The position numbers and the translations under genes are program-made. From a virus: a stretch of DNA of 64,000 nucleotides. The notes beneath the pieces are model-generated. The model made no database searches and had not been told where the DNA came from. It was given only the letters and a program-made list of their open reading frames with translations. Positions 29,301 through 59,912 of this stretch are shown piece after piece; position 1 is the first letter of the stretch; every line of letters starts with the position of its first letter. The stretch is taken from IMG/VR virus record IMGVR_UViG_3300025684_000010; one strand, written 5' to 3'.

Positions 29301-29576
29301 TTAATCTACGAGCTTACCAGCCAATTCGCCTTCAGCACCAGTATCAACATTTACGGCGCCTTCACCAACCCCTTCAGGTTGCTTTGGTCCTTTCTGTCTT
29401 AGGAATGCTTCGAGTTTATTTCTTAGCATACCGATACCAGCTAGTTCTTGCCCTTGGAATCCACCGCGAGTACTGACCACGTCAATGATCTGTAGTAGCG
29501 TTGAGATATCTCCAAGAGTAATTACGGCTTCTTGCTCTTGCTGTTGGCCTTGTTGCATTGCATCATTCATATTCAT
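29301..29576 (-). CDS. hypothetical protein
   Basis: ORF in operon between gp45 and gp44. Confidence 0.7.
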   Translation of the reverse strand: MNMNDAMQQGQQQEQEAVITLGDISTLLQIIDVVSTRGGFQGQELAGIGMLRNKLEAFLRQKGPKQPEGVGEGAVNVDTGAEGELAGKLVD

Positions 29577-30238
29577 TACCTTTTATTATAAGTCGACTTT
29601 GAATCAATTGCCACGTAATACGTGACGCCTTCGCCTTTAAATTGTGAGATACCTTTTGAACAAAGCGTAACCTCATAATCTATTGGCATTAGTTTCAAGT
29701 TATCAGTTTTAATGATAATCCTGAACTCATCGGCAGTTTCCCCAATTTCAACGCCAAAGTCATCTGCGTTGTCGTTGGCACTGTCGATTGCTTTCAGATA
29801 GCATTTGCCGCCTTCGCCTACAAACGCAATCTCCGAAAATTGTAATACCCCTGCCGCCTTCAATACTGAAGACAACGTATCTGCCGTTACATCCACAACA
29901 ACATCAGCAGTAGGAATATTAATTTCCTTTTCTGGTGGAGTGTGAATCATTGATAGATCTGCAAAGACATACTTGGTACGTCTTTTTCCTTCCGAGATAA
30001 TAAAGTATTTATCAAAAAACTCCACATCTGGATCATTATATAGAGATAAAATTGAAAGAAAGCGCGATAAGTCGTAAATACAAGCATCAGCTGGTATTTC
30101 TTGACCGATATTCGCAATCGCAATCAATGTTTTCTCTGGAGTTATAGTCTTAATAACTGAACCAGCTGACAACAAGATTGACTTGTTGATAGAGGTAAAG
30201 CTTTTTAGGACCGTCAAGGTTTCGTTAGAAAATTTCAT
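29576..30238 (-). CDS. gp45: sliding clamp gp45
   Basis: MKFSNETLTVLKSFTSINKSI; IYDLSRFLSIL. Confidence 0.95.
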   Translation of the reverse strand: MKFSNETLTVLKSFTSINKSILLSAGSVIKTITPEKTLIAIANIGQEIPADACIYDLSRFLSILSLYNDPDVEFFDKYFIISEGKRRTKYVFADLSMIHTPPEKEINIPTADVVVDVTADTLSSVLKAAGVLQFSEIAFVGEGGKCYLKAIDSANDNADDFGVEIGETADEFRIIIKTDNLKLMPIDYEVTLCSKGISQFKGEGVTYYVAIDSKSTYNKR

Positions 30239-30271: not shown

Positions 30272-30300
30272 ATTATAACAGGTTTATTTAGATTTGTCAA
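30272..30300 (-). promoter_or_regulatory. sigma70-type promoter upstream of gp45
   Basis: TTGACA-N17-TATAAT. Confidence 0.85.
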
Positions 30301-31153
30301 TAGGATTATAAGACTTTCTGTTAGATGTATTATCTGCAGTTGCCGTAACACCTAATTGACCGAGAGATCCCATGTCACCCTTAAAGATATAAGAACCAAC
30401 ATGGTTGATTTTCATCCAAGGACACATCCATACTGATAGACCAGCTTTACGAGCCATTCTACAGAAGAAGTAGTCTTCAGATAAGTACCTTCTAGATTCT
30501 GGGTCAATGACACAATCAAAGAAAGCGTGGATATCACGAGTACCGTCAAATTGTTCTGTCCTAACGTGATCTGGTCTATATGCCAATTCAGGATAAGCAT
30601 CTCGATATTTTTCTAATGCCTCTCTTGTAATTAGCATAAACCCAGTACCGCCTTCGGCAACTTCAACAGGTTCTGCGAGTTTAAATTGTTTTATATCTCC
30701 GACTGGATTAAAAACAAAATCTGATGTAAATTTTTCTAAGTCGAAAGGATTCTCTTTACCTACTCCATGTTGAGCAGCTGCAGCTACCTTTTCCCAAGCA
30801 ATTGTCTTCTTAGGATACGGTCCACATACAACATCGTATTTTTCTGGATCTGAAACTTGTAACGCAAGTAATGCTAACGCGTCACGTGGATCAAATCCAA
30901 TGTCTGCATCAATAAACAATAAATGAGTACAATCAGAACGAAGGAATTCATCTACGATATAGTTCCTTGCTCGTTGAATTAAACTTTCGTTGAATAGAAA
31001 GTAGTACTTCATTGGAATTTTGTGAGAACTACATAGCATACTTAAATCGTTAGTCGACTTAGTATAGATACCTGTACATTGACCACCATACATAGGTGTA
31101 CCAATAAAGAGTCTTTGTTTTTGTAGTTCTTCTGTCTTTACTTCTAACTTCAT
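30284..31153 (-). CDS. GT-A fold glycosyltransferase-like protein
   Basis: FIGTPMYGG, LIQRARN, LLFIDADI (DxD), GTGFMLI, LSEDYFFC. Confidence 0.7.
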   Translation of the reverse strand: MKLEVKTEELQKQRLFIGTPMYGGQCTGIYTKSTNDLSMLCSSHKIPMKYYFLFNESLIQRARNYIVDEFLRSDCTHLLFIDADIGFDPRDALALLALQVSDPEKYDVVCGPYPKKTIAWEKVAAAAQHGVGKENPFDLEKFTSDFVFNPVGDIKQFKLAEPVEVAEGGTGFMLITREALEKYRDAYPELAYRPDHVRTEQFDGTRDIHAFFDCVIDPESRRYLSEDYFFCRMARKAGLSVWMCPWMKINHVGSYIFKGDMGSLGQLGVTATADNTSNRKSYNPIDKSK

Positions 31154-31813: not shown

Positions 31814-31842
31814 ATTATAACAAACTTTACTAGTCTTGTCAA
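31814..31842 (-). promoter_or_regulatory. sigma70-type promoter upstream of dexA
   Basis: TTGACA-N17-TATAAT. Confidence 0.85.
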
Positions 31843-31847
31843 TAGTT

Positions 31848-33074
31848 TTATGCAAAGAATTCATCTAAGTTTGGAGTTGTGTCTACACCATTCTTGTCAT
31901 GTTCCATTAATTGCTTATGGTTATTCTGTCGAAGATAGGTTGACTCTGACATATCGAGTTCGCCTGTAAGGAACTTAGCAATTTCACTATGGAGATCAGC
32001 AGATGTTGGTACAGGTACGTTTTGAGCGATATGATTCATTTTCTTCAAACCATGTAATAACTCAAAGTTCTCAGGAAAGCCCATCATATGTAAAGCTTCT
32101 CGAATTGTTAATGACCTTTCTTCAGTAGGATGCATTGTATCAACCATGTTACGACCAATTACTGCATTCATATATTCGCCAAAGACATGTACTGAACCAT
32201 CCCATACACCTTTACCATCAGCAAACTTCATAATGGCATGATCTGAGTATTTGGCGCCTTTTTCGTTTCCTGTTCTGTGGAACCATTCGTTGGCTTCTTT
32301 CATCCAACCTTTCTTACAAACATAATTCAGAGTTGTCTTAACGTCCTCTTCAACCATAAGCTCTCGAACATCACGATTTGTTTTTGTCTTAATGAAATTG
32401 TAATATGGTTCGTCAGGTACATGCTTATTAATAATCAAATCTTGATGTAATGCGTCAACAGGAATCTCTTGTAAGTATTCAGCAAAGTTCTTTCTTGGTT
32501 TATTATACCAATTCATTACAGGAGCAGAGTCAGACTTCCAGCCGATCGCAAAGGTCCTGTCGCGTCCTTGAGGAACTCCGTGGAATCTCGTCGATGTTTT
32601 ATATAGGGACAAAGAATAACCCCTCTCAGCGCAAATTTCGTACAGTCTATTTGCTACAGGACGACCTTTATTTGTAAACAATGCAGGAGCATTCTCAACA
32701 ATCACTACCTTTGCACCAAGTCTATCAATACCATCTTGAAAGACCATATACATAAATTCGTTCTTAGCACAACCTGCGCCTTTACTCTCTGTAGTTGTTC
32801 CTGTATTTAATTGAGATAGAGCAGCACATGGTGGAGTACCAGAGACCACATCAACTTGCGTTAGTCCACTGTTTTCTACTTCATCAAGTTTAATATAAGG
32901 AATATCGCGTCCCATTGTATTTTGTTGGTAGTTTACGTAATGACTATCGTTATCCTCAAACCCACCATAAGAGTAGATTGCTGTAGGTGGTTTACCAAAC
33001 GCTCTTTCTGCGCCTAGCATTTGTCCACCGATAAGCGGAATGAGTGGTGCCCATGTTATTTCTTTTTTGTTCAT
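31848..33074 (-). CDS. C5-cytosine DNA methyltransferase-fold protein with atypical motif I
   Basis: Motif IV GTPPC, motif VI ENAP, motif VIII QGRDR, motif IX RSLTIREALHMMGFP, motif X IAQNVP; motif I reads PLIGG rather than FxGxG. Confidence 0.85.
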   Translation of the reverse strand: MNKKEITWAPLIPLIGGQMLGAERAFGKPPTAIYSYGGFEDNDSHYVNYQQNTMGRDIPYIKLDEVENSGLTQVDVVSGTPPCAALSQLNTGTTTESKGAGCAKNEFMYMVFQDGIDRLGAKVVIVENAPALFTNKGRPVANRLYEICAERGYSLSLYKTSTRFHGVPQGRDRTFAIGWKSDSAPVMNWYNKPRKNFAEYLQEIPVDALHQDLIINKHVPDEPYYNFIKTKTNRDVRELMVEEDVKTTLNYVCKKGWMKEANEWFHRTGNEKGAKYSDHAIMKFADGKGVWDGSVHVFGEYMNAVIGRNMVDTMHPTEERSLTIREALHMMGFPENFELLHGLKKMNHIAQNVPVPTSADLHSEIAKFLTGELDMSESTYLRQNNHKQLMEHDKNGVDTTPNLDEFFA

Positions 33075-34312
33075 CCGAAAAAATCCTCAAGTGTTGCAGC
33101 TACTTTCTTATCAAATTGCGTTACATCTGGTGCAACATAATCATTATCAATCGCTGTCATAATTTTATTGTTTAAGAATGTACCATCGTAGTATTCAGGT
33201 TTACATATAAGTTTACGTAATCCTGTAATTACCGATTCATACTCCTGTTCATTATTTAATAACCTATTCATCCTTTCTTTAAATTCAGCAGGAGTTTTCG
33301 GTCTTAAAAAATCTGGTATTGGCAAATGCCCCTGTTCATCATAAGATGGATGCAAGAACGGTATCACACCAGCATGTACCATTTCAATATACTTTGAAGT
33401 TACCCAACCTTTTGCGATTGGAATAATAAAAGTAAATTTAACATTATTCATTTTAGCCATTACATCATCAAGATGAATAGATCCTTTGAACCTTGCGTCT
33501 GTTTCGGTATTAGGATGTTCCCATTTACCATAGATCTCAACATCATCATGTTCATCTAATACCCAATCCTTTAATAAATTGTATCTTGAAGGTTTAGCTT
33601 CGTTTAAGATAACCATAAAAGGAACGTTACGATTTAAGTTGAACTGTTCAGTATGTTGATAGTTAATACAGAAACAAGTTTCCATTCCTGCATATGTTGA
33701 AGGCATTGATCTGTCGTAACGATCTTGTTCTTCGTAAGATTTAATACTACTTACTTTATATTCATAATCGTATTGACCTAAAGATATATTTGGTAAATTG
33801 AATATGTCTCTTGATTGATTCATAACATACCGAGGATCGTTTACAATTTCAACATAATCAGGATTCTCTTCGTTAATCCAAATCGCAATTGGTGATGTAT
33901 AATTCTTTGTCATATCAATCACAGAAGCTTTAAGTGTACGATCTTTAACTTGTTCAATTTTGCCTGGGATCGTAACTGTACCAACTTGACCAACCATTAA
34001 AACAGTATAGTCTAATTTCATTGACCTACTCTTAAAGTAATCAATCACGTGATTAAAGAATCTATCTTCATCGTTGTTTTTAATACCTTTCCAAATATCA
34101 ATTACATTATCAAAGGGAAACAACTCCAATGATTCAGACTCATTTAGAGTACTGAAATCAGATCGTCCGATAATGTAAAATGTTTTGTCTGGGTTATTAT
34201 TTGCGAGTGCAATAAGTACTGTAGACGGCTCGTTGTCTCCACCAATAGGAGAGAAGCGATTCCGCTTAAACTTGACCGATTTACCGATCTTTCCAAATCC
34301 AATGTTTTTCAT
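33071..34312 (-). CDS. GT-B DNA glycosyltransferase, T4 beta-glucosyltransferase-like
   Basis: NDPR (cf. BGT TDIR catalytic Asp, from memory); FKGSIHLDDV..K..FII..WVTSKYIE..DEQGH parallels the BGT C-terminal domain. Confidence 0.6.
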   Translation of the reverse strand: MKNIGFGKIGKSVKFKRNRFSPIGGDNEPSTVLIALANNNPDKTFYIIGRSDFSTLNESESLELFPFDNVIDIWKGIKNNDEDRFFNHVIDYFKSRSMKLDYTVLMVGQVGTVTIPGKIEQVKDRTLKASVIDMTKNYTSPIAIWINEENPDYVEIVNDPRYVMNQSRDIFNLPNISLGQYDYEYKVSSIKSYEEQDRYDRSMPSTYAGMETCFCINYQHTEQFNLNRNVPFMVILNEAKPSRYNLLKDWVLDEHDDVEIYGKWEHPNTETDARFKGSIHLDDVMAKMNNVKFTFIIPIAKGWVTSKYIEMVHAGVIPFLHPSYDEQGHLPIPDFLRPKTPAEFKERMNRLLNNEQEYESVITGLRKLICKPEYYDGTFLNNKIMTAIDNDYVAPDVTQFDKKVAATLEDFFG

Positions 34313-34339: not shown

Positions 34340-34774
34340 TTATTTATCCGAATTGACCACACGTTGTCTGAGCTCTGACGAACTGAAAGAATGCCTTCTG
34401 CGATTATAATGAACAGGACATAAACCTTTTCCAGTATGCTCAACATCTTTGTATTCTTCACCAACAATTCTAATATCAGGATTGATAGTCAAAATCATAT
34501 CAACCAATTCTTGTTCAGTTGAGAAAGGTATTACCTCGTCTACATATTTACAAGAAGATAACTGTATGTATCTTTCAAATGGAGTCTGAACTGGTTTGTT
34601 CTTTGCATTAGGACGATCCACGGTTGGGTCAATCAATAATCCAACAATTAAATAATCGCACAACGTCTTTGCTTCTTGTAGCATTACAATATGACCTGCA
34701 TGAAACAGATCAAACGTTGAACATGTAAATCCGACCTTACAATCTGCCGGTAATTTTTTCCTATCTAGAAACAT
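34340..34774 (-). CDS. cytidylyltransferase-family nucleotidyltransferase (TagD / RfaE domain II-like)
   Basis: GFTCSTFDLFHAGHIVML (HIGH motif); YVDEVIP; SSSELR. Confidence 0.9.
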   Translation of the reverse strand: MFLDRKKLPADCKVGFTCSTFDLFHAGHIVMLQEAKTLCDYLIVGLLIDPTVDRPNAKNKPVQTPFERYIQLSSCKYVDEVIPFSTEQELVDMILTINPDIRIVGEEYKDVEHTGKGLCPVHYNRRRHSFSSSELRQRVVNSDK

Positions 34775-35711
34775 TTTCTTCCCTCAAAATTTCTTTAACT
34801 CGTTTAGCATACACCGTATAGAGTGGTGTTTTATCAGTTGGTAGATAATGTATATATGCAGGGAAGGTTTTAAAATTTAACACTGCGTCGAGTTTTAGAA
34901 CCGTAGTCCAAATACGTACGTCACTACCAAACCTGCTTACCTCAAATCCATTCTCTGATAACCATTTATAATAAATTGCATATATGTTTTGTTCTATACA
35001 CCAAAACTTTCCACCCATAGATCGGTTATTACCTGGAGTTCCATACTTTGGTATAACAGAACCACCATAACCTTTTTTGTTTTTATACTTGTGTACACCT
35101 TCCATAATAAGAACATACATATCTTTACAAGCTGCTCTTTTAAAGAACTCAAGATAATGATCGTTTCTTGTATGTACAACCTGACCAGAATTCATACTAA
35201 AATAAGGTTTGGTTCTCATTGTAGTAATATCAACCTTATCTTTATAAATTGGATCAAGTACTGCTTCTACAAACTTACCCATAACACCTAATGCAGATTC
35301 GTTATAGAATACATAAGGTTCAAAGAAATAGTGGTCAACAGGCTTGAGTAATAACGTATCGTCATCAATCATCATTGCTCTGTTGATGTTTAATATTTCA
35401 TGTGCATAAGGAAAGACCAACCATTTGATTGCCACTCCATATACATCAAGTATTCGTAACAACCACTCTTCATCAAAGAAATGCTTTACTTTATCAATCA
35501 CATCAGTTACATAGTGAATTGTTATCTTATCTGATATACTTTCTACGTTATAGGTAGTATGCCGATCATCTAAGATAACATGCAAATTCATATATGTATC
35601 TTCGTCGTATACATTATACATCTCAAGAAGGTTTTCAATCCTTGAGATTTTATTGCTTACTATGAATATATCATTCTGCATAGTCGATAATATCCAATAG
35701 ATCGTTAACAC
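34761..35711 (-). CDS. GT-A glycosyltransferase, GT8-like
   Basis: MIDDDT (DxD), YFSMNSGQV, EQNIY, YIHY...K. Confidence 0.55.
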   Translation of the reverse strand: MLTIYWILSTMQNDIFIVSNKISRIENLLEMYNVYDEDTYMNLHVILDDRHTTYNVESISDKITIHYVTDVIDKVKHFFDEEWLLRILDVYGVAIKWLVFPYAHEILNINRAMMIDDDTLLLKPVDHYFFEPYVFYNESALGVMGKFVEAVLDPIYKDKVDITTMRTKPYFSMNSGQVVHTRNDHYLEFFKRAACKDMYVLIMEGVHKYKNKKGYGGSVIPKYGTPGNNRSMGGKFWCIEQNIYAIYYKWLSENGFEVSRFGSDVRIWTTVLKLDAVLNFKTFPAYIHYLPTDKTPLYTVYAKRVKEILREENVSR

Positions 35712-36717
35712 ACTGAATGATAAAGTCTTTATCTGGGTGGTACTTGTATACTCGAATCACTTCGGCAGCTGTTAGCGTTAACAACTCATACTTATCTATC
35801 CAATGATTATATGCCAACATTGTATTAATCACAAGATCTTGAGTATGACTATCATAACGATTGATTATTAAACTTGCGATAAACTTTGCTATGTCAAGTT
35901 CACGACAACCAAATACATTAGGAATAGGATCAATTAAGTACATTGTGTCACTGTCATTAAACAGCATGTTCTTAATACCAAAATCTCCATGACAATAACC
36001 ATACTCTAATTCAATAGAAGATAGTCTTTCAACAACATCATTAAAAGGTTCAAGGTTAGCATTAGTACAGTGATTTACGATTCTTGCTATATAATCATCA
36101 AAGGTTAGAAACTTTGTTTCGATTGGCATATTACCAAAAGCATCAAGAGCTTCTTGAATTAACGCCAATGCTTTATAAGGACTGTCTTCGAAGAAATTAG
36201 GATCGTTTTCAATATAATCCATTGTAATCGTATCACCAACCACTCGATGAATCTCAGGTGTACATACTGCCCAACCGGTTTTCTCATACCAAAGTGCGGC
36301 TTCATGAGCATTCTTTGCTGTCTTGTGAACAAACTTACCGTCGGTGTAAATGTCAGAGCCTGATAGGCCACCTTCCAATTCACGAATATCAGCCTCTACA
36401 AAATCTTCAGGTGTAATACCTTTGTCGTCAATGTAATATGCTGCGAGTGGTTTATTAAAACTGAGTGCATGGTACTTTACGTTATTCTTTTGTAACCACG
36501 ATTCAATTTGAGGTCCATACTTATCTGCAGCTTCTTCTCTACTCCTACAAGAAATAGATCCACGAGCTGTATATATGTCGATAGTCCAACCTTGATTATA
36601 TAGTTCATTACACTTTTCAATTAGAGCAACGTTGGGTTTTGCGTTATCCCAATCTCTATTTGATGTAAATGCTAGAGTGTCATCAAAGTCAAGGACTATT
36701 CTTTTATGTGACGACAT
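35671..36717 (-). CDS. HAD phosphatase fused to APH/choline-kinase-like phosphotransferase
   Basis: N-terminal LDFDDTL, YTARG, KP..YYIDDK; C-terminal CHGDFGIKN, LIDP. Confidence 0.82.
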   Translation of the reverse strand: MSSHKRIVLDFDDTLAFTSNRDWDNAKPNVALIEKCNELYNQGWTIDIYTARGSISCRSREEAADKYGPQIESWLQKNNVKYHALSFNKPLAAYYIDDKGITPEDFVEADIRELEGGLSGSDIYTDGKFVHKTAKNAHEAALWYEKTGWAVCTPEIHRVVGDTITMDYIENDPNFFEDSPYKALALIQEALDAFGNMPIETKFLTFDDYIARIVNHCTNANLEPFNDVVERLSSIELEYGYCHGDFGIKNMLFNDSDTMYLIDPIPNVFGCRELDIAKFIASLIINRYDSHTQDLVINTMLAYNHWIDKYELLTLTAAEVIRVYKYHPDKDFIIQCVNDLLDIIDYAE

Positions 36718-36950: not shown

Positions 36951-36979
36951 ATTATAACAAATTTTTGTGCAGTTGTCAA
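36951..36979 (-). promoter_or_regulatory. sigma70-type promoter for the glycosylation/MTase operon
   Basis: TTGACA-N17-TATAAT. Confidence 0.85.
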
Positions 36980-36983
36980 TAGT

Positions 36984-37436
36984 TTATTTAGCCAATCTGA
37001 AATCTGTTTCAAATTTACATCCTGACTCAATAAAGAGTTGTTTTGACTTATCATACGATTCTATCCATCTTTGAGGAACATCTTCTGCAGCCATTACAAT
37101 TCTATTTATGCCAACTTGGATAATTCCTTTTGCACATTCATTACAGACAGGTAAACCCCACACGTATATTGTTGTATCTTTTAACGATACTCCATGAAAG
37201 GAGGCATTGAAGATTGCATTCATTTCAGCATGCACAACGAGTTCGTATTTCAGTTCTCTATTGTTATACTTATCTGCTGAATCATCAATACCTTTAGGAA
37301 AGCCATTATAACCAGTTGCTAGGATACGTTTATCTTTTACAATAACCGCTCCTATTTGTTTACTTGGATCTTTTGACCAACTTGAAACTTCTCGGGCAAC
37401 TCGTATAAATCTTTGATCCCATTTATTTTCCTGCAT
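36984..37436 (-). CDS. cd: dCMP deaminase
   Basis: ATGYNGFP; HAEMNA; PVCNEC. Confidence 0.92.
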   Translation of the reverse strand: MQENKWDQRFIRVAREVSSWSKDPSKQIGAVIVKDKRILATGYNGFPKGIDDSADKYNNRELKYELVVHAEMNAIFNASFHGVSLKDTTIYVWGLPVCNECAKGIIQVGINRIVMAAEDVPQRWIESYDKSKQLFIESGCKFETDFRLAK

Positions 37437-38091
37437 TAATTAACGCCTCAATAAATTCAAAATGTCTTTCATATACATGAAGATTAGTTGCAGTCCAAAT
37501 CAAGTCACCGACCTCAACTTCGAGATCATAAGCAAGTTGACCTTGAACAAACTTTGCCCAAGCAACATCATTGTTATAACCAAAGACAGCATCGTTAGAT
37601 CTCATTACATAATGGGATATAAGTTTACCATCTCGAATCATAAACGTATTCGCAAATGTACACATAAAGTCAGACATACCATCACGGTTGAAATCAAGAT
37701 GCATACTTGGACGATTATAGATCATTGCAGCTCTACGGCTGTTTGGATTAGCTTTCAACTCTCGAAGTACATGTTTATATTGATTACCATTCTCTTCAGA
37801 GTAAATACACCAACCATAATTAGAATTGATCTTACCTTCGTTAGAAGATATATCTTTCCAAATCTGTGGTGTCTCTCCAGGAATATCATCAACATATAGT
37901 GATTCAGACATATACCACTCAAGTTCACGCTCGATGTACTTATATGCTGGTGTTCTAATCAACCAATTTTCATCAGCAACAAATGATTCACCAAGAACTT
38001 CAATAGTCTTAGCGCCTGACTTGTCAATGACATAATCTTCTGCAAGATACTTGTCAATTAGGTCTGCTCGGATATCATTTGTTGTTTTCAT
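37423..38091 (-). CDS. gp42: dCMP hydroxymethylase (T4 gp42-like)
   Basis: Long blocks match recalled T4 gp42: KTIE, SFVADE, YIERELEWY, DIPGETP, INSNYGW, DGMSDFMCT, MRSND.VFG..ND.AW (Asp at the cytosine-specificity position), LHVY.RHF. Confidence 0.9.
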   Translation of the reverse strand: MKTTNDIRADLIDKYLAEDYVIDKSGAKTIEVLGESFVADENWLIRTPAYKYIERELEWYMSESLYVDDIPGETPQIWKDISSNEGKINSNYGWCIYSEENGNQYKHVLRELKANPNSRRAAMIYNRPSMHLDFNRDGMSDFMCTFANTFMIRDGKLISHYVMRSNDAVFGYNNDVAWAKFVQGQLAYDLEVEVGDLIWTATNLHVYERHFEFIEALINAGK

Positions 38092-39778: not shown

Positions 39779-40192
39779 TTACTCTCCTTTAAGTTTTGGT
39801 AGGATACCATGATTGCCTTCATGAGATGGAGCCGTCCATCCTTCAGGTTTCATCAAGTCAGGTAATCCTAGTGGGTTTGGCCGTCCTTCCTTTACTCCAG
39901 GTTCTTTGGCCATGTTTGCTTCGAGAACTGCGTCCCAAGCTTTATAAGGATCGACTCCGAAGGCATCAAGAGTACCGATTGCCACTACACAAAGGTCAAC
40001 TAAACCATCAACGATTTCTTCGGAGTCGATATCTTTTTGAGCTGTTCTTGTTTCTTCGAGTTCTTCTTGTAGGAAGTTAACTCTAAATTCCAAAAACGCT
40101 TTCAACTTTTCCACATCTGCGTTTGCTACCCAGTTGTGTGTTTTATATTTTGATTGCATATCAACAATATCTTTTACCCAATCCTTACTCAT
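39779..40192 (-). CDS. MazG-like all-alpha NTP pyrophosphohydrolase (candidate dCTPase/dUTPase)
   Basis: EELEE..EEIVDGLVDL..VLEANMAK..KPEGW. Confidence 0.8.
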   Translation of the reverse strand: MSKDWVKDIVDMQSKYKTHNWVANADVEKLKAFLEFRVNFLQEELEETRTAQKDIDSEEIVDGLVDLCVVAIGTLDAFGVDPYKAWDAVLEANMAKEPGVKEGRPNPLGLPDLMKPEGWTAPSHEGNHGILPKLKGE

Positions 40193-40753: not shown

Positions 40754-43312
40754 TTAACTAAAAAAGTCATCGAGAGTATTAACCTTCTCCGCTGACCATC
40801 CAACCGCATCAAGGATTGACTGTATGGGACTCAAGAATACTTTGTCAAACTGAAGTTCAGTATCAACGTAATCGTGTAGTCCAAGTTGTTTTGGCAATAA
40901 GCCAGGAACCGATATTGCGTTCTCACGAATAGGATTAGGTACCTTTAAATATAATAACTTGACTTTGTCTCCACCTTGGATAGTTTCAAACTTCTTGTCA
41001 AGTCCTTTCTCTTTAAGGAAGTGGTTATACATTAAGGATCCACGAACATGCATTGGAGTACCTTTTCTGTATATAGATCCTTTGTCTTGGTACTTCTTAA
41101 GTTCATTAACACCCGAGGTCTTTGCGATGGCCATAGGATCTAATGTACGAAACAGTTCTTTGAAATCTTTAATGAAACCTTGAGTTGTTTCTTCATCAGT
41201 ATTCATAATGATCTCAAAACATTGCTTGAGTTTATCACGACAGATCTCAGGAGTCGAAGATCTTACTGATTCTAATCCTGTTACCGATACCTTAGGAGTA
41301 TCGTAGTGAACGCCTTCTGAGTTCAATGTATTTAGAATATATCGTTTCTTAGCAACAAAGATTGCTCGGTTAGTAATCTTTTCACGTTTCATTACCATTG
41401 CGTTACGATATGTACCTAGATCAGCAGCAAGCTTTTCATAACCATCTTCGATGACTTGTTCAATTTTAGTTGAACAGATTCTATCAAGGAACTCTTCACC
41501 TTTATCTTTATCAATATCAGTCGTACCAAACACTTCTTTAATCAGAGGACCGAAGTCAACATAGATAGAGTCGGTATCAATATAGATGATATAGTCATGG
41601 TCAGTTGTACCTAGAGTTCTATTTAAATAATCATTAACCGACTTTTCAGCATAACGAATACCTAACTGACCGCTTGTTGTAATTGCCTCGGCCATTTCAT
41701 TAATATAGTATAAGAAATATTTGTTAGCAGTAGCACCATACAAACTGTTCATGGCAATCTTAATTGACATTTGTGAATTGTGTAATTGATTGATCTCACG
41801 CTTTAGGCGTTTGAGTTCTCTTGGATCTGTCTCAACCTCAAACTGTTGTTCAGCAAGGATCATCTGCTTTTTGATAACAGAACGGTTATTATAGTATTCA
41901 TCAATAATTTCAGGAATGATTCCTTGCTTCTTATTTGAAAAACAAACACCGTTAGCAGCCACTGATACATTAGGACGATCATTCTTATATTCACGATTCA
42001 GTACCATGTCTTGAGTCACGTATTCACGATCATTGGGCATATAGGTTTCTGGTGACATGTTATATTGTAACATTAAGTGAGGGTATAGAGAGTTAAGGTC
42101 AAAAGATACAACCCAAGGATGCATTCCAACTTTAGGATCTTTAACATAACCACCAACAAGATCACCAGCAACCATTCCTGGTCCACCTTTAAGTGGAGGA
42201 ACAATTTTATCTTTCATTAGTTTACGATATATGGTTGATTCCCATATACCAACTGTACCAAACGCATCACCGTAGTTAACACCACCGTCATATGCAACTG
42301 TCATAACCAACGCAAGCAATCCTGTCTCTTCTTCGAGACGAGCAATCAGTTGAGTATCTTTTAAATTATAGTCAAGATACAATTGAGGATTCTCTTCCCA
42401 TAATCCAGTTAACGAACCATATTCAGAGTAATCAATTTTCTTTTCACCAAGGACAGCGTAAGCAATATGATCTAACTTATACGATTCTTGAGGACCGTAC
42501 TTATAACCAAACTTTTTAAAGCAATCCATATAATCGAGAACAACAACACCCATAATACGATATGTTGATGCAACCTTACCAAAGATCTCTCGAGAGGTTT
42601 GTTTTAATGATTTGTGTGGAGATAAACGCTTTGTGGTTTCTTCTCCAAGTAACGCGGTGATACGAGTTACGATGTATTGAATATCAAAGTATTCAACGTT
42701 CCAACCAGTTACAACATCAGGATAATCAGTTGTCCATAGTTTCATAAAGTATTGAAGTAAAGCACGTTCACCATCAATACCATCAAACAATACGAACTCA
42801 ATCTTATCTTGAGGAATATCAGTAACAGTTTTAGTCTTGTCATAATCTTTGCGACCAAGTACATAATATACATCATCTCGAGAACTATGATAAGCAATAG
42901 ACGTAATCGGTTTATCGGCAGTGTCCATATTTGGATAACCATCACTGATGTCAACCTCAATATCAAACGATACGATATTGACCTGGCTTACGTCATATGT
43001 AATCTTACCAGGATACTCTTCTTGAATAAACTGAGTTACATAATTTGTTGAACCAAACGTCTTCATACCGTGAACACCTTTGTATTCTTCGATGAAGTTC
43101 TTTGCTTCTCGCATATCACCAAACTTGTGTGGAGATACAGGTAAGTTACCTTCTAACGAATGGAAACCTTCTGCACCAGACTTTGGAGTATGAATGTATA
43201 GAGTAGGCTGAAATGGAACGCGGTACGAGAAACGTTTACCATTTTCGTAACCTCGATGTAAAATATTGTTTCCGTATCTTTCAACGGATGTATAGAATTT
43301 AGTCAATGCCAT
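40754..43312 (-). CDS. gp43: family B DNA polymerase gp43 (unsplit)
   Basis: SFDIE; SFDLNSLYP; KIAMNSLYG; YIDTDS; KKRY. Confidence 0.98.
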   Translation of the reverse strand: MALTKFYTSVERYGNNILHRGYENGKRFSYRVPFQPTLYIHTPKSGAEGFHSLEGNLPVSPHKFGDMREAKNFIEEYKGVHGMKTFGSTNYVTQFIQEEYPGKITYDVSQVNIVSFDIEVDISDGYPNMDTADKPITSIAYHSSRDDVYYVLGRKDYDKTKTVTDIPQDKIEFVLFDGIDGERALLQYFMKLWTTDYPDVVTGWNVEYFDIQYIVTRITALLGEETTKRLSPHKSLKQTSREIFGKVASTYRIMGVVVLDYMDCFKKFGYKYGPQESYKLDHIAYAVLGEKKIDYSEYGSLTGLWEENPQLYLDYNLKDTQLIARLEEETGLLALVMTVAYDGGVNYGDAFGTVGIWESTIYRKLMKDKIVPPLKGGPGMVAGDLVGGYVKDPKVGMHPWVVSFDLNSLYPHLMLQYNMSPETYMPNDREYVTQDMVLNREYKNDRPNVSVAANGVCFSNKKQGIIPEIIDEYYNNRSVIKKQMILAEQQFEVETDPRELKRLKREINQLHNSQMSIKIAMNSLYGATANKYFLYYINEMAEAITTSGQLGIRYAEKSVNDYLNRTLGTTDHDYIIYIDTDSIYVDFGPLIKEVFGTTDIDKDKGEEFLDRICSTKIEQVIEDGYEKLAADLGTYRNAMVMKREKITNRAIFVAKKRYILNTLNSEGVHYDTPKVSVTGLESVRSSTPEICRDKLKQCFEIIMNTDEETTQGFIKDFKELFRTLDPMAIAKTSGVNELKKYQDKGSIYRKGTPMHVRGSLMYNHFLKEKGLDKKFETIQGGDKVKLLYLKVPNPIRENAISVPGLLPKQLGLHDYVDTELQFDKVFLSPIQSILDAVGWSAEKVNTLDDFFS

Positions 43313-46141: not shown

Positions 46142-46720
46142 TTACTCCTGGGTGGCAGATTTTTCTTGTTCGGCTTTTGCGTTGTCTATTGCTGCTTGGG
46201 CGCGTGCGATATAAGCTGTCATTTGGTTTCTTTGCTTTGTAATTTTTTTCTTCTTCTTTAATGCTCTATCCCATTTGAGTTGAGATACTTTCTGAGAAAA
46301 TACAACTCCATGTAGGTGGTCAAATTCATGTAAGAAACATCTTGCGGTATAACCTTCAAAGTTTCCGGTTTGTGGATTACCATCTTCATCATACCACGAA
46401 GCTTCAACGGATGTTGGTCGATGCATTTTGAGAAACACATCAGGGTAGGTAAGACATCCTTCAAAGTCAAGTTCTGTTTCTTCCGAGACAGATAGGACTT
46501 TAGGATTAACGAACATCATTGTATTCTCTTTGTCTTCACCGATAATAAACACTTTATAATCAATACCAACTTGAGAAGCAGATAACCCTAGACCTCTTTT
46601 GGAGACCATCAGCTCTACCATATCTTCCTTGGTTTGCTTTAAATCAATCTGTGGATTTTTGATGTCAACATCTTGTAATTCTTTAAATAGAATTGGATCC
46701 TTTGTAGATACTAATTTCAT
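46142..46720 (-). CDS. def: peptide deformylase
   Basis: GLGLSASQVG; EGCL; HEFDHL. Confidence 0.95.
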   Translation of the reverse strand: MKLVSTKDPILFKELQDVDIKNPQIDLKQTKEDMVELMVSKRGLGLSASQVGIDYKVFIIGEDKENTMMFVNPKVLSVSEETELDFEGCLTYPDVFLKMHRPTSVEASWYDEDGNPQTGNFEGYTARCFLHEFDHLHGVVFSQKVSQLKWDRALKKKKKITKQRNQMTAYIARAQAAIDNAKAEQEKSATQE

Positions 46721-50481: not shown

Positions 50482-51093
50482 TTATTTACACAAAGGACTT
50501 TGTAAGATTGAGTTCTCTTCTCCAACTCCACGTCTTGCTACTGTATAACCAAGATCACAGTATTTACGAATCGTATCGTCTACCGTTTCTTTTGGTGTTA
50601 AGATGTTTGTTTCAAATTCAATCCATGAAGGCCAACGTTCTTTTTCATTAGATTCAAGAAAAGGAAGAAACGAATTTAATATAAAACAATCTCCGCCTTC
50701 TGTATCAATTTTTAATATAGTAAGTGTATCAACATTATGCTGTTCAAAGATGTCACCTAAAGGTATCGTATCAACATCAATTGTTTCTACAACTGATTGA
50801 AGATTATTCTTTTTGTGTTGATAGTGATAGTCACCTATTGAATTACAGCCGCGAATCCAAAGAGGCATGTTGTGTTTCTGAATTGTCTCAAGAGGAATAT
50901 AATAAACTTTATCACGACCTACTTTTCCATCAAAAGAAATCGCAGAATTGATTTTCTTAACGTTTGGTTTGTTTGGTAGTCGATCTAAATAGAACTTGAT
51001 TGGTTCAATGCACAGACCAATACATTGATCGGTTGCGTCTTGTATAAGGGTATCAAAATCAGATGTACCCACTTCAATAAAATCATAATTCAT
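50482..51093 (-). CDS. FkbM-family methyltransferase
   Basis: FIEVG; IEP; LKIDTEGGD. Confidence 0.8.
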   Translation of the reverse strand: MNYDFIEVGTSDFDTLIQDATDQCIGLCIEPIKFYLDRLPNKPNVKKINSAISFDGKVGRDKVYYIPLETIQKHNMPLWIRGCNSIGDYHYQHKKNNLQSVVETIDVDTIPLGDIFEQHNVDTLTILKIDTEGGDCFILNSFLPFLESNEKERWPSWIEFETNILTPKETVDDTIRKYCDLGYTVARRGVGEENSILQSPLCK

Positions 51094-51649: not shown

Positions 51650-52378
51650 TTATTCGTTGGTGATGTATACCATGAATGCACAACACTGATCCCAATTACC
51701 TTCGTTTAACCATCGGTCATTGTAGGCTAAGGCTTCGTGTTTCTTATCCATCCATCGTACTTTTTTGAATTGCGGCAATAACGTATCTCTGACCTTCATC
51801 CATTGTTTTGCAGCTCCACCATAACAGCTTAAGTGAAACTCTACTGCCATGTGTTTAACATTTGTAGTTAGATATTCCATATTGATTTCAGTGAATACAC
51901 CGTACTCTCCACCTTCACAATCTATTTTGAGGTAATCAATTTTTGGTATATTATAATCAACCACAAGATCGAGAAAAGACATTCTTTTAAACTCTCGATA
52001 TTCTGAAAAGACATTATTAAAATGGTTTGACGTTGATCCTATGCCTGCTTCGATAGGAATGACAGGAGTAGTACTATTGTCAATATAATGATCCGAAATA
52101 TTTTGGATAAGAGTTTTGAGATGAGGCCTAGAAGGTTCGATAGCAAATATACGAGAAGCTTTACGGTCAAGAGCATGACAGACAAAGAAACCAACACAGG
52201 CACCAATATCAACAACCACATCACCTTCTTCAACATCTCTCCACCACTTGTAATCCATTCTGTGAAAGAATTCAATAAATTGCGCGTTAACATCTGGTAG
52301 AGGTAACCCGTCCGTTTTTAAATTCAAATTAAGATACTTGTTAGTATCCATTCTTTCGTAATCTTCTTTTCTACTCAT
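51650..52378 (-). CDS. FkbM-family methyltransferase
   Basis: VVDIGACVG; IEPS; LKIDCEGGE; start reassigned to MSRKE (overlaps the upstream TGA). Confidence 0.85.
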   Translation of the reverse strand: MSRKEDYERMDTNKYLNLNLKTDGLPLPDVNAQFIEFFHRMDYKWWRDVEEGDVVVDIGACVGFFVCHALDRKASRIFAIEPSRPHLKTLIQNISDHYIDNSTTPVIPIEAGIGSTSNHFNNVFSEYREFKRMSFLDLVVDYNIPKIDYLKIDCEGGEYGVFTEINMEYLTTNVKHMAVEFHLSCYGGAAKQWMKVRDTLLPQFKKVRWMDKKHEALAYNDRWLNEGNWDQCCAFMVYITNE

Positions 52379-52539
52379 CACCAATGCCTTATTGTATTTG
52401 CCATAATAAAGAAACACGTTAAAAAGTTTACACCAACAATAATCGTTCGTAGCAACATAACATAATCGTCATAGGGCTCTGTCTTATCGTCAGAGAAACC
52501 ACCTAATGCGTATTTCCATATCAATTTAAGTTTATTCAT
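52378..52539 (-). CDS. small membrane protein (53 aa)
   Basis: MNKLKLIWKYALGGFSDDKTEPYDDYVMLLRTIIVGVNFLTCFFIMANTIRHW; not in the ORF track. Confidence 0.65.
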   Translation of the reverse strand: MNKLKLIWKYALGGFSDDKTEPYDDYVMLLRTIIVGVNFLTCFFIMANTIRHW

Positions 52540-58812: not shown

Positions 58813-59208
58813 ATGAGTGATTTGGCAAAAGAAATAAAGCAGGAGATCAAGGAACAGTACAAAGATAGTGCTATGTCTAAAACTGGTCGTCTTGCGATGG
58901 AGCTGTCTGCAGAGAAGGCTCGATTAAGACAAGAGATGGCAGAGCTTCAAGTACAGGTAGAAGACTTAACACCGGTTACTCCTGAAGGTACACTTGATAG
59001 TTACGTTAAATGGGGAGCAACGATACTTGCGGTGTTTGGAGTATTTACTCAAAGCGCAGGTTTTATTTTTATGGGTAAAATTGCATATGCTTTAAGTTCT
59101 ATTGCATGGACTTATGTAGGACATTGTTGGAATGACAAAGCAATTATGATCGGTAGTGCAATTACAGGAACTGCCGTTCTATTAAATTTAACGGAATATA
59201 TTAGATGA
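58813..59208 (+). CDS. membrane protein with N-terminal coiled coil
   Basis: YVKWGAT... three hydrophobic segments. Confidence 0.65.
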   Translation: MSDLAKEIKQEIKEQYKDSAMSKTGRLAMELSAEKARLRQEMAELQVQVEDLTPVTPEGTLDSYVKWGATILAVFGVFTQSAGFIFMGKIAYALSSIAWTYVGHCWNDKAIMIGSAITGTAVLLNLTEYIR

Positions 59209-59912
59209 AAGAAGTATTTGTATTTGACGTAGACGGAACATTAACAGATTCTCGCCAGCCAATGAATCCAGAGTTCAAAGAGTTTATGTTGAAATTCATG
59301 GAGAACAAAGATGTATTCCTCGTTACAGGATCCGATCGTCTCAAGACCTATGAACAATTAGGATTTGAATTTTACGAGGCCTGTAAAGGTGTATGGCAAT
59401 GCAACGGTAACGAATTTTGGGAAGGATCGCAACGTGGTCCAAAGAATGACTTTGTAGTTGACTACGAGTTCAAAAAGTTTCTTACGAATCACGTTAACTC
59501 AAGTAGATATCCAATTAAGACAGGATCTCATATTGAGGAAAGAACTGGCATGTTAAACTTTTCTACAATAGGACGCGGTGCAACTTTACAGCAGAGAGAA
59601 GAGTATTACAAGTGGGATCTAAAATACCACGAACGTATATTACTTTGCGAACAGATCAACCACGAATACCCAAAGCTATTAGCTTCAGTAGGTGGGCAGA
59701 TTAGTATTGATATCGCACCGAGATCAAATAATAAGTCTCAAATCGCAGATATCCTAAATAAACAATACGACCATATTCATTTCTACGGAGATAAGATGGA
59801 GTATGGTGGCAACGATTACCCTCTTGCTACAACAATAACAATTGGTAATATGGGAACAGCATACCCAGTTGAAAATTACAAACAAACCTGGGAGGTTTTA
59901 AAACAACTATGA
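59205..59912 (+). CDS. HAD-IIB phosphomannomutase (PMM/Sec53-type)
   Basis: FDVDGTLT; IEERTGMLNFSTIGR; GGQISIDI; FYGDK...GGNDYPL. Confidence 0.85.
   Translation: MKEVFVFDVDGTLTDSRQPMNPEFKEFMLKFMENKDVFLVTGSDRLKTYEQLGFEFYEACKGVWQCNGNEFWEGSQRGPKNDFVVDYEFKKFLTNHVNSSRYPIKTGSHIEERTGMLNFSTIGRGATLQQREEYYKWDLKYHERILLCEQINHEYPKLLASVGGQISIDIAPRSNNKSQIADILNKQYDHIHFYGDKMEYGGNDYPLATTITIGNMGTAYPVENYKQTWEVLKQL

Follow-up and report, generated by a model that had tools for sequence, protein, structure and literature searches.

A virus-only family of C5-cytosine-methyltransferase-like proteins with a predicted altered cofactor pocket marks hydroxymethylcytosine-type phages

Introduction

Enzymes of the C5-cytosine-methyltransferase fold are not restricted to methyl transfer from S-adenosylmethionine (SAM). 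Without SAM, they strip the hydroxymethyl group from 5-hydroxymethylcytosine (hmC) (PMC11347137). A phage enzyme, SpCmoX of Synechococcus phage S-B43 (PDB 8YF3), is a DNA cytosine C5-carboxymethyltransferase, in which an Arg at the position of HhaI N304 binds the carboxyl group of carboxy-SAM (Cx-SAM) and switches the cofactor (PMC12783734). In other phages, clusters of methyltransferase, TET and glycosyltransferase genes make hmC after replication (PMC8256090; bioRxiv 10.1101/2023.12.21.572611). Here, we analyzed a stretch of 64,000 nucleotides from a virus (IMG/VR record IMGVR_UViG_3300025684_000010; 'the window' below means this whole stretch) and a gene in it for a 408-residue protein resembling C5-cytosine methyltransferases, whose SAM-binding motif I had been noticed to read I-P-L-I-G-G. 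The window comes from an uncultured marine T4-like myophage (G+C content ∼36%) and encodes a family B DNA polymerase, a Rad50/Mre11-like pair, UvsW, UvsY, topoisomerase II subunits, a sliding clamp and a clamp loader. When the locus was compared at the nucleotide level with 50,697 phage records, no match was obtained.

The protein belongs to a family, referred to here as the PLIGG family, which is virus-only and almost absent from prokaryote genomes, and which probably performs a novel step on the phage's own modified DNA. Compared with canonical PF00145 enzymes (M.HaeIII, M.HhaI, Dcm and the catalytic domain of DNMT1), the whole fold is predicted to be alike (Z 24–26), and the Pro-Cys, Glu-Asn, Gln-x-Arg-x-Arg and Arg-Glu elements follow in the same order. 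However, the PLIGG family differs from them in having I-P-L-I-G-G as motif I, no conserved motif II Glu, P-C-A, E-N-A-P and A-Q-N in the later motifs, a helical target-recognition region and a C-terminal clamp-type tail, and in being confined to viruses and found in hmC loci.

CmoX is the closest functional precedent, although the context and all details of the pocket differ. It is likewise a phage enzyme of the same fold (Z 22.9) in a hypermodification pathway, repurposed via a pocket change at the HhaI N304 position. On the other hand, CmoX keeps the motif I Phe, the motif II Glu, the motif III Asp and an adenosyl cofactor, whereas the PLIGG family has lost the adenosyl contacts; CmoX has Arg at the N304 position and S-P-P-C, whereas the 408-residue protein has Gln351 and T-P-P-C; and CmoX is accompanied by the cofactor synthase CmoA and uses unmodified cytosine as its substrate, whereas the PLIGG family co-occurs with gp42, the deoxycytidine monophosphate (dCMP) hydroxymethylase of T4-type phages. 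SAM-free C5-methyltransferases have reportedly been found by the Klimasauskas laboratory to remove the hydroxymethyl group from hmC and to couple thiols in vitro. Such side reactions use the same catalytic residues with the cofactor absent and would be the default chemistry of a PLIGG-type enzyme on hmC DNA; they are in vitro reactions of true methylases, and we know of no natural enzyme dedicated to them. The TET clusters resemble the present locus in that a methylase-fold gene lies beside DNA glycosyltransferases in a cytosine hypermodification cluster. Their methylases, however, are canonical SAM enzymes that give 5-methylcytosine (5mC) to the dioxygenase, whereas here hmC would be made before replication by a gp42-type enzyme, and no TET-type gene was present among the annotated genes of the window.

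Results and discussion

Intact catalytic residues and an altered cofactor pocket

The gene and its motifs are as follows.

31848..33074, minus strand: C5-cytosine-methyltransferase-fold protein of the PLIGG family, 408 amino acids (aa) (open reading frame (ORF), PF00145, AlphaFold2 model, structural alignment)
33024..33041, minus strand: rebuilt motif I, I12-P-L-I-G-G17, replacing F-x-G-x-G-G (family frequencies)
32826..32834, minus strand: P-P-C83 of motif IV, which reads G-T-P-P-C83-A-A-L-S (canonical P-C-Q-x-F-S), with the catalytic Cys and with Ala replacing Gln
32685..32696, minus strand: motif VI, E127-N-A-P (canonical E-N-V) (family frequencies)
32556..32570, minus strand: motif VIII, Q169-G-R-D-R173 (family frequencies)
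32013..32027, minus strand: rebuilt motif X, A350-Q-N-V-P, replacing G-N-A-V-P (profile alignment to M.HaeIII, family frequencies)

The 408-aa protein matched PF00145 at 87 bits (cut-off 22), the match starting at profile position 10, past most of motif I, and scored 65.8 against the NCBIfam dcm model TIGR00675, under its cut-off of 100.65. An AlphaFold2 model built on 148 relatives (pLDDT 96, pTM 0.93) was aligned by VIA structural alignment with M.HaeIII (1dct) at Z 25.6, with a root mean square deviation of 2.8 over 275 residues; the Z values for DNMT1, M.HhaI and CmoX were 25.4, 24.7 and 22.9, respectively. As modelled, the protein has the two-domain C5-methyltransferase fold, including the cofactor-side Rossmann half. 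The fold takes up residues 1–374 only, the last 35 residues being a linker and a tail, and the target-recognition region of the model is large, conserved and helical.

The original prediction that the catalytic Pro-Cys (in G-T-P-P-C), E-N-A-P and Q-x-R-x-R are intact, and that motif I is I-P-L-I-G-G, could be read directly from the sequence. Motif IX reads T-I-R-E. Two further changes had not been described: the Gln of motif IV is Ala, and the Gly-Asn of motif X is Ala-Gln, with Q351 falling in the profile alignment on the M.HaeIII Asn that is equivalent to HhaI N304.

A word-indexed search for relatives returned 398 clusters (90% identity level); those listed (120) have identities as low as 58% and derive from metagenome data of JGI, ENA, Logan and Tara (marine). 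An exhaustive HMMER search gave 282 50%-identity clusters at E<1e-30, and more than 580 matches on viral contigs were confirmed for each of two pattern sets. Only 5 family loci, all on contigs of metagenome-assembled genomes, were detected in a prokaryote scan with one genome per species (185,579 species), and the nearest clusters in a protein atlas were 94–100% viral. A literature search, whose coverage excluded most subscription journals, found no paper characterising the PLIGG family.

Conservation was measured across 148 aligned members, the most distant at 30% identity, and the statements about the pocket are drawn from this alignment rather than from model coordinates. The catalytic set was nearly invariant: C83, E127, R171 and R173 were each present in 100% of sequences, N128 in 99% and Q169 in 97%. 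At the cofactor side, the position of HhaI G20 was Leu (96%) and that of A19 was Pro (89%), and the position of F18 was I, V or Q and never aromatic. No majority residue was found at the position of the ribose-binding motif II Glu (HhaI E40), which was A, K, Q or E. The position of HhaI N304 was Gln (98%) with N352 adjacent to it (96%), motif X beginning with A, C or T followed by Gln-Asn. Furthermore, the position of HhaI V121 was Ala (100%) and the next one Pro (97%), and the residue after the catalytic Cys was A, S or G. The former adenosine region also holds conserved residues, namely Phe39 (84%), Asn42 (93%) and Asp/Glu43 (93%), together with a motif III-like Asp (60%).

Three features that define the cofactor site of C5-methyltransferases (motif I F-x-G-x-G, the motif II acid and the motif X Gly-Asn) were thus missing, and for this reason the 408-aa protein was not classed as a SAM-dependent methylase. 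On the basis of these alignments, the altered SAM pocket appears as a conserved trait of the family. Motif I, which had been regarded as broken, proved to be a hallmark of a large family and not a local defect; other SAM-contact positions have changed as well, and the catalytic residues are invariant. Decay or pseudogenisation was considered and rejected, as the substituted positions are conserved as strongly as the catalytic ones.

These observations bear on the explanation that the protein is an ordinary SAM-dependent methyltransferase with an unusual motif I, which forms 5mC at rare unsubstituted cytosines or acts on another substrate. The PF00145 score is well over the cut-off and the predicted fold is complete, with its cofactor-side Rossmann half; binding of adenine by Phe39 and the frequent motif III-like Asp is still conceivable; and motif I varies in some true C5-methyltransferases, such as DNMT3. 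However, five separate SAM-contact positions are changed, all of them fixed family-wide, the score is under the NCBI dcm cut-off, and the Leu that replaces Gly20 should take up the room of the methionine moiety. A strict link to gp42-type genes, seen in 0 of 80 loci of canonical phage methylases (see below), also argues against this explanation, to which we give little credence. A 'backup methylase', which had been proposed as an alternative, fits poorly with the rebuilt SAM pocket; a backup enzyme with another one-carbon donor is possible and is considered below.

Some family members are longer, fused proteins on short (2–5 kb) metagenome contigs: P0192 (598 aa), P0151 (1462 aa) and P0180 (768 aa). 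P0192 bears a zf-CXXC domain, which is typical of eukaryotic CpG readers.

Linkage to gp42-type genes

The window has its own thymidylate synthase (TS) homologue.

37423..38091, minus strand: dCMP hydroxymethylase, gp42 orthologue, 222 aa (E 7e-71 to T4 gp42, PDB 1b49; Asp at the L143 and N177 positions)

Its assignment as gp42 had been made from the sequence, and both the match to 1b49 and the two discriminating Asp residues bear it out. Some TS homologues of T4-like phages make 5-hydroxy-dCMP, and the RB69-type synthases resemble MilA (PMC13326640). This assignment was rejected for the window gene, whose best match is T4 gp42 (7e-71) and not MilA. Because the TS homologue of the window matches gp42, whereas 5-hydroxy-dCMP synthases resemble MilA, hmC remains, judging from the genes, the likely base of the DNA of this phage.

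To examine the genomic context, we used 252 viral-contig loci obtained with four sub-alignments (close and distant clades), as the 148-sequence alignment was too diverse to serve as a locus query, and by looking up two distant members and the locus of S-TIM54, which is annotated. TS homologues were sought in all ORFs of the loci with an iteratively built TS profile, and were present in 139 of the 252 loci. When at least 6 kb was available on both flanks, 58 of 87 loci had one; by set, the wide-flank loci gave 11 of 11 and 21 of 21 in two T4-like sets, and 17 of 38 and 5 of 13 in two more distant sets. Almost all of the homologues (135/140) had Asp where E. coli ThyA has Asn177, a replacement that identifies dCMP as the substrate, and 129 of 130 scorable ones also had Asp at the position of ThyA Leu143, the signature of T4 gp42. 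Four whole virus records without a TS homologue within 10 kb all had a divergent homologue elsewhere, three of them clearly Asp-type and one ambiguous; no complete record with a PLIGG enzyme replacing gp42 was found among these whole records (n=4).

As a control, canonical F-x-G-x-G phage methylases were examined in the same way at 80 loci (1.2 Mb in total), and a TS homologue was found in none of the 80, nor in any of the 46 with at least 13 kb. The significance of the difference in the wide-flank subsets (Fisher P∼5e-16) is inflated, since the loci are phylogenetically related and the control consists mostly of gut phages of other lineages. It had been proposed that PLIGG is conserved only where gp42 co-occurs. 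In agreement with this, PLIGG homologues were found almost only with an Asp/Asp TS homologue and DNA glycosyltransferases, whereas canonical F-x-G-x-G phage methylases were not; PLIGG homologues were not common in genomes lacking gp42. The PLIGG family is a reliable genomic marker of hmC-type phages, and whatever its activity, this large family is of interest as such a virus-only marker.

With regard to TS homologues of other types, several large and jumbo phages, namely three whole virus records (G002–G004, with loci L111, L116 and L131) and Bacillus phage G, carry a canonical Asn-type TS plus a second, divergent Asp-type homologue. The annotated 'ThyA' of S-TIM54 (L081, 6105–6947) has Asp at the Asn177 position and Cys at Leu143, that is, it is dCMP-specific without the gp42 or RB69 signature.

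A shared C-terminal tail and a coupled glycosyltransferase

The C-terminal tail that follows the linker is found on three proteins of the window. These, and the presumed docking partner, are listed below.

31851..31871, minus strand: tail N-L-D-E-F-F-A of the methylase-like protein, after a linker outside the fold (shared with gp43 and GT413)
33071..34312, minus strand: GT-B glycosyltransferase GT413, 413 aa, T4 beta-glucosyltransferase (BGT)-like, ending A-T-L-E-D-F-F-G (AlphaFold2 pLDDT 87, Foldseek)
40754..43312, minus strand: family B DNA polymerase gp43, ending N-T-L-D-D-F-F-S (PF00136, PF03104)
29576..30238, minus strand: sliding clamp gp45, presumed docking partner of the tails (homologues in related loci with PF09116 gp45-slide_C; synteny)

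Among the 90 ORFs of the window with at least 80 residues, only gp43, GT413 and the methylase-like protein (P-N-L-D-E-F-F-A) have L-D/E-D/E-F-F-x ends. The tail is retained by close relatives and was found in 58 of 72 distinct family proteins from loci with gp45. Moreover, the tails of the methylase-like protein and of its partner transferase co-vary across lineages: the distinct pairs comprised 19 of the acidic-F-F type, 4 of K-x-L-F and 3 of D/E-D/E/N-W, with few mixed. That two unrelated enzymes keep the same lineage-specific C-terminal peptide suggests a shared docking partner, most plausibly the gp45 clamp. T4-like gp45 clamps bind C-terminal peptides of gp43, gp33 and gp55, and a gp45 interaction has been reported for T4 alpha-glucosyltransferase. 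The clamp peptides of T4/RB69 gp43, gp33 and gp55 likewise form a short acidic-aromatic C-terminal end after a flexible linker, and the tail of the 408-aa protein is of the same type as that of its own gp43; here, however, the putative docking tail is on a methylase-fold enzyme and a BGT-like transferase. Whatever the activity of the enzyme, these phages would have their modification enzymes attached to the replication clamp through tails that evolve together in each lineage.

GT413 lies directly upstream of the methylase-like gene, and its stop codon overlaps the start of the latter as ATGA, which confirms the translational coupling that had been noticed. The description of GT413 as BGT-like seems fair at the level of the fold: its top five Foldseek matches in the PDB were all T4 BGT (1nzd, 1qkj, 1bgt, 1j39 and 1c3j), with E∼4e-8, TM 0.46–0.67 (maximum target-normalised) and an identity of 11–13%. 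In Pfam it had only a weak match to Glyco_trans_1_2.

Co-translation with a glycosyltransferase and possession of the same tail would also be expected if the methylase-like protein had a non-catalytic role, for example, as a base-flipping helper or as a scaffold for the glycosyltransferase on the clamp. However, the catalytic Cys, Glu, Gln and both Arg are conserved at 97–100% over 148 divergent sequences, and T4 glucosyltransferases flip the base themselves, so that we regard such a role as hardly credible. The tail and the gene order also bear on a possible weapon against unmodified DNA, in which the SAM-free enzyme would deaminate cytosine or form covalent adducts, and which only a phage with C5-substituted cytosines of its own could afford, as with the cytosine-specific nucleases of T4. 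A weapon of this kind would account for the strict link with C5-substituting phages, and SAM-free C5-methyltransferases are known to accelerate C-to-U deamination. On the other hand, a clamp-type tail common to the polymerase and the glycosyltransferase points to the forks of the phage itself, and the gene is within a modification operon and not among host-shutoff genes; we consider this explanation very improbable.

A tentative reaction on hydroxymethylcytosine

The reading that we favour, held with somewhat less than even confidence, is that the PLIGG protein is a catalytically competent enzyme of the C5-methyltransferase fold which makes no canonical use of SAM and acts on hmC in newly replicated DNA by exchange or removal. 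The enzyme would be made early, together with the BGT-like DNA glycosyltransferase, and would dock on the gp45 clamp through its C-terminal L-D/E-D/E-F-F peptide, as the glycosyltransferase and the polymerase would do, and therefore act on newly replicated phage DNA, in which the cytosines would be 5-hydroxymethylated. Cys83 would add to C6 of the flipped hmC, with Glu127 and Arg171/Arg173 holding the ring, and the C5 substituent would thereby be activated. Two outcomes could follow: either a nucleophile bound in the rebuilt pocket would take the place of the hydroxymethyl group, yielding a new 5-CH2-X-cytosine, or this group would be released as formaldehyde. We lean slightly towards exchange, because Asn42 and Asp/Glu43, which are far from C5 in the former adenosine site, are strongly conserved, suggesting that a ligand still binds.

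Several points weigh against this reading. A non-canonical mode of SAM binding is conceivable, considering the frequencies of Phe39 (84%) and the motif III-like Asp (60%). There is no evident biological benefit of removing hydroxymethyl groups, and an enzyme repairing stray unmodified cytosines would be expected to show the link to gp42 just as well. In addition, a TS homologue was missing within 10 kb in about half of the clade A3 and A4 loci (the four whole records described above are such cases), and no CmoA-like cofactor-synthesis gene was recurrent in the ORF clusters of the 252 loci, the commonest of which are only partly annotated.

Repair of stray cytosines could be performed by a backup installer, which, from the clamp, would convert stray cytosine to hmC or another C5 adduct with a non-SAM one-carbon donor (methylene-tetrahydrofolate or formaldehyde), the co-tethered glycosyltransferase trapping the product irreversibly. 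The catalytic set exactly suits attack on unsubstituted cytosine, and the addition and removal of hydroxymethyl groups by C5-methyltransferases are reversible; the translational coupling to a DNA glycosyltransferase with a clamp-type tail in common and the strict linkage to hmC phages would also be explained, and the conserved Asn42-Asp43 could bind a pterin. However, we know of no enzyme of the C5-methyltransferase fold that uses folate, and no folate-related gene was found among the commonest neighbour clusters, which are partly annotated. The whole records checked included none with a PLIGG enzyme in place of gp42, and the target-recognition region, being large, conserved and helical, speaks for site selectivity over general scanning. 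An installer thus appears unlikely.

If the PLIGG enzyme does edit hmC, it would represent a new kind of DNA-modifying activity and a possible tool for hmC mapping or labelling. It would be a doubtful but possible claim that it is the first natural enzyme for SAM-independent C-C/C-O chemistry at hmC in DNA, which, from the clamp during replication, either erases the base to C or makes a 5-CH2-X-cytosine not seen before. As an eraser, it would be the direct hydroxymethyl eraser long discussed for epigenetic demethylation, which to our knowledge has never been found as a natural enzyme; as an exchanger, it would place a novel base in abundant marine phages.

Operon structure and neighbouring genes

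The remaining features of the locus are given below, from the methylase-like gene towards the polymerase gene.

31814..31842, minus strand: sigma-70-type promoter, perfect (12/12) with TG, directly after the stop of the methylase-like gene, heading the exonuclease unit
34340..34774, minus strand: cytidylyltransferase-like nucleotidyltransferase, 144 aa (PF01467, 2.8e-15; phrog_7878)
34761..35711, minus strand: 316-aa ORF, labelled a GT-A-like transferase in the original prediction (no Pfam, PHROG or NCBIfam match; present in ∼39 related loci)
35671..36717, minus strand: HAD phosphatase fused to an APH/choline-kinase-like kinase, 348 aa (TIGR01689, capsule phosphatase, 6.7e-16; CotS/Bud32-type kinase; phrog_1238)
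36951..36979, minus strand: sigma-70-type promoter, perfect (12/12) with extended -10 TG, heading the five-gene operon
36984..37436, minus strand: dCMP deaminase (PF00383, 5e-22)
39779..40192, minus strand: MazG-like NTP pyrophosphatase, candidate dCTPase (PF01503, 1.6e-9)

Five tightly packed genes lie between the two promoters: the HAD/kinase fusion, the 316-aa ORF, the cytidylyltransferase-like gene, GT413 and, as the last one, the methylase-like gene. A third perfect (12/12) sigma-70 promoter with extended -10 TG (30272–30300, minus strand) heads the gp45 unit, and by their sequence all three look like strong early promoters.

The order of genes was fixed in the 80 closest loci: gp43, MazG, gp42, dCMP deaminase, a variable sugar-donor cassette, the GT-B transferase, the methylase-like gene, the exonuclease, an ORF of 289 aa without known function and gp45. 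In the closest loci, the GT-B transferase went down to 28% identity where the methylase-like protein kept 66–70%. The gene directly upstream belonged to the BGT-like glycosyltransferase family in 81 loci and was a homologue of T4 alpha-glucosyltransferase (PF11440) at E 2.5e-95 in 46 loci; a sugar epimerase/dehydratase took this place in 16 and a GT4 transferase in 10. In other loci, the directly upstream gene encoded UDP-glucose dehydrogenase, UDP-galactopyranose mutase, GT25 or a protein that has the helical domain known from 5-hydroxymethyluracil DNA kinase. The PLIGG enzyme is therefore tied to hmC and DNA decoration in general rather than to one sugar. The ORF clusters that recurred in the 252 loci were confined to genes for replication, gp42, dCMP deaminase, transferases and sugar-nucleotide enzymes.

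Two genes lie between the methylase-like gene and gp45. The DEDD exonuclease (Rv2179c-like, PF16473; 31150–31788, minus strand) immediately follows the methylase-like gene in 94 of the 252 loci, in three clades. The 289-aa ORF (30284–31153, minus strand), which precedes gp45 in 121 of the 252 loci, has a GT-A-like D-A-D motif, no Pfam match and only a match to phrog_1574 (function not assigned); it may be another DNA transferase.

A phosphatase/anomeric-kinase/nucleotidyltransferase route to UDP-arabinose has been proposed in RB69 and DLP3 (PMC13326640). The HAD phosphatase, APH-like kinase and nucleotidyltransferase of the window (34340–36717, minus strand), and those of a related locus (L349, 933–3008), parallel this route. 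By analogy, the sugar on the DNA of the window phage may be a pentose.

Cultured carriers of the family

Three sets of cultured phages carry the PLIGG gene in the same context, so that its function is directly testable. Pseudoalteromonas phage vB_Psh_XG4 has a family member at 50% identity; in its locus, an Asp/Asp TS homologue is followed by a HAD-like ORF, by a nucleotidyltransferase/APH-kinase fusion resembling the arabinose enzymes of RB69, by a pair of GT-B genes and by the methylase-like gene. The members of cyanophages S-TIM5, S-TIM54 and S-TIM66 (31% identity) are 2 kb from the Asp-type 'ThyA'. Finally, gp301 of Bacillus phage G belongs to the family as a divergent member and, among viral proteins, gave the best structural match (query-normalised TM-score 0.75); it is 4 kb from an annotated alpha-glucosyltransferase, and the second TS homologue in this genome is Asp/Asp.

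Other observations

In another T4-like lineage, a cassette beside a family member (L085, 5565–11209) encodes a 2-oxoglutarate-Fe oxygenase, an inositol-1-phosphate synthase, a protein sharing the helical domain of 5-hydroxymethyluracil DNA kinase and a 354-aa ORF, with no recognisable glycosyltransferase in the cassette. It may represent a novel, possibly phosphate-activated, cytosine hypermodification. Elsewhere in the window (50482–51093, 51650–52417, 59205–59912 and 46142–46720), two FkbM-type methyltransferases flanking the tail-tube gene, a phosphomannomutase and a peptide deformylase were identified, which may be auxiliary genes feeding sugar metabolism.

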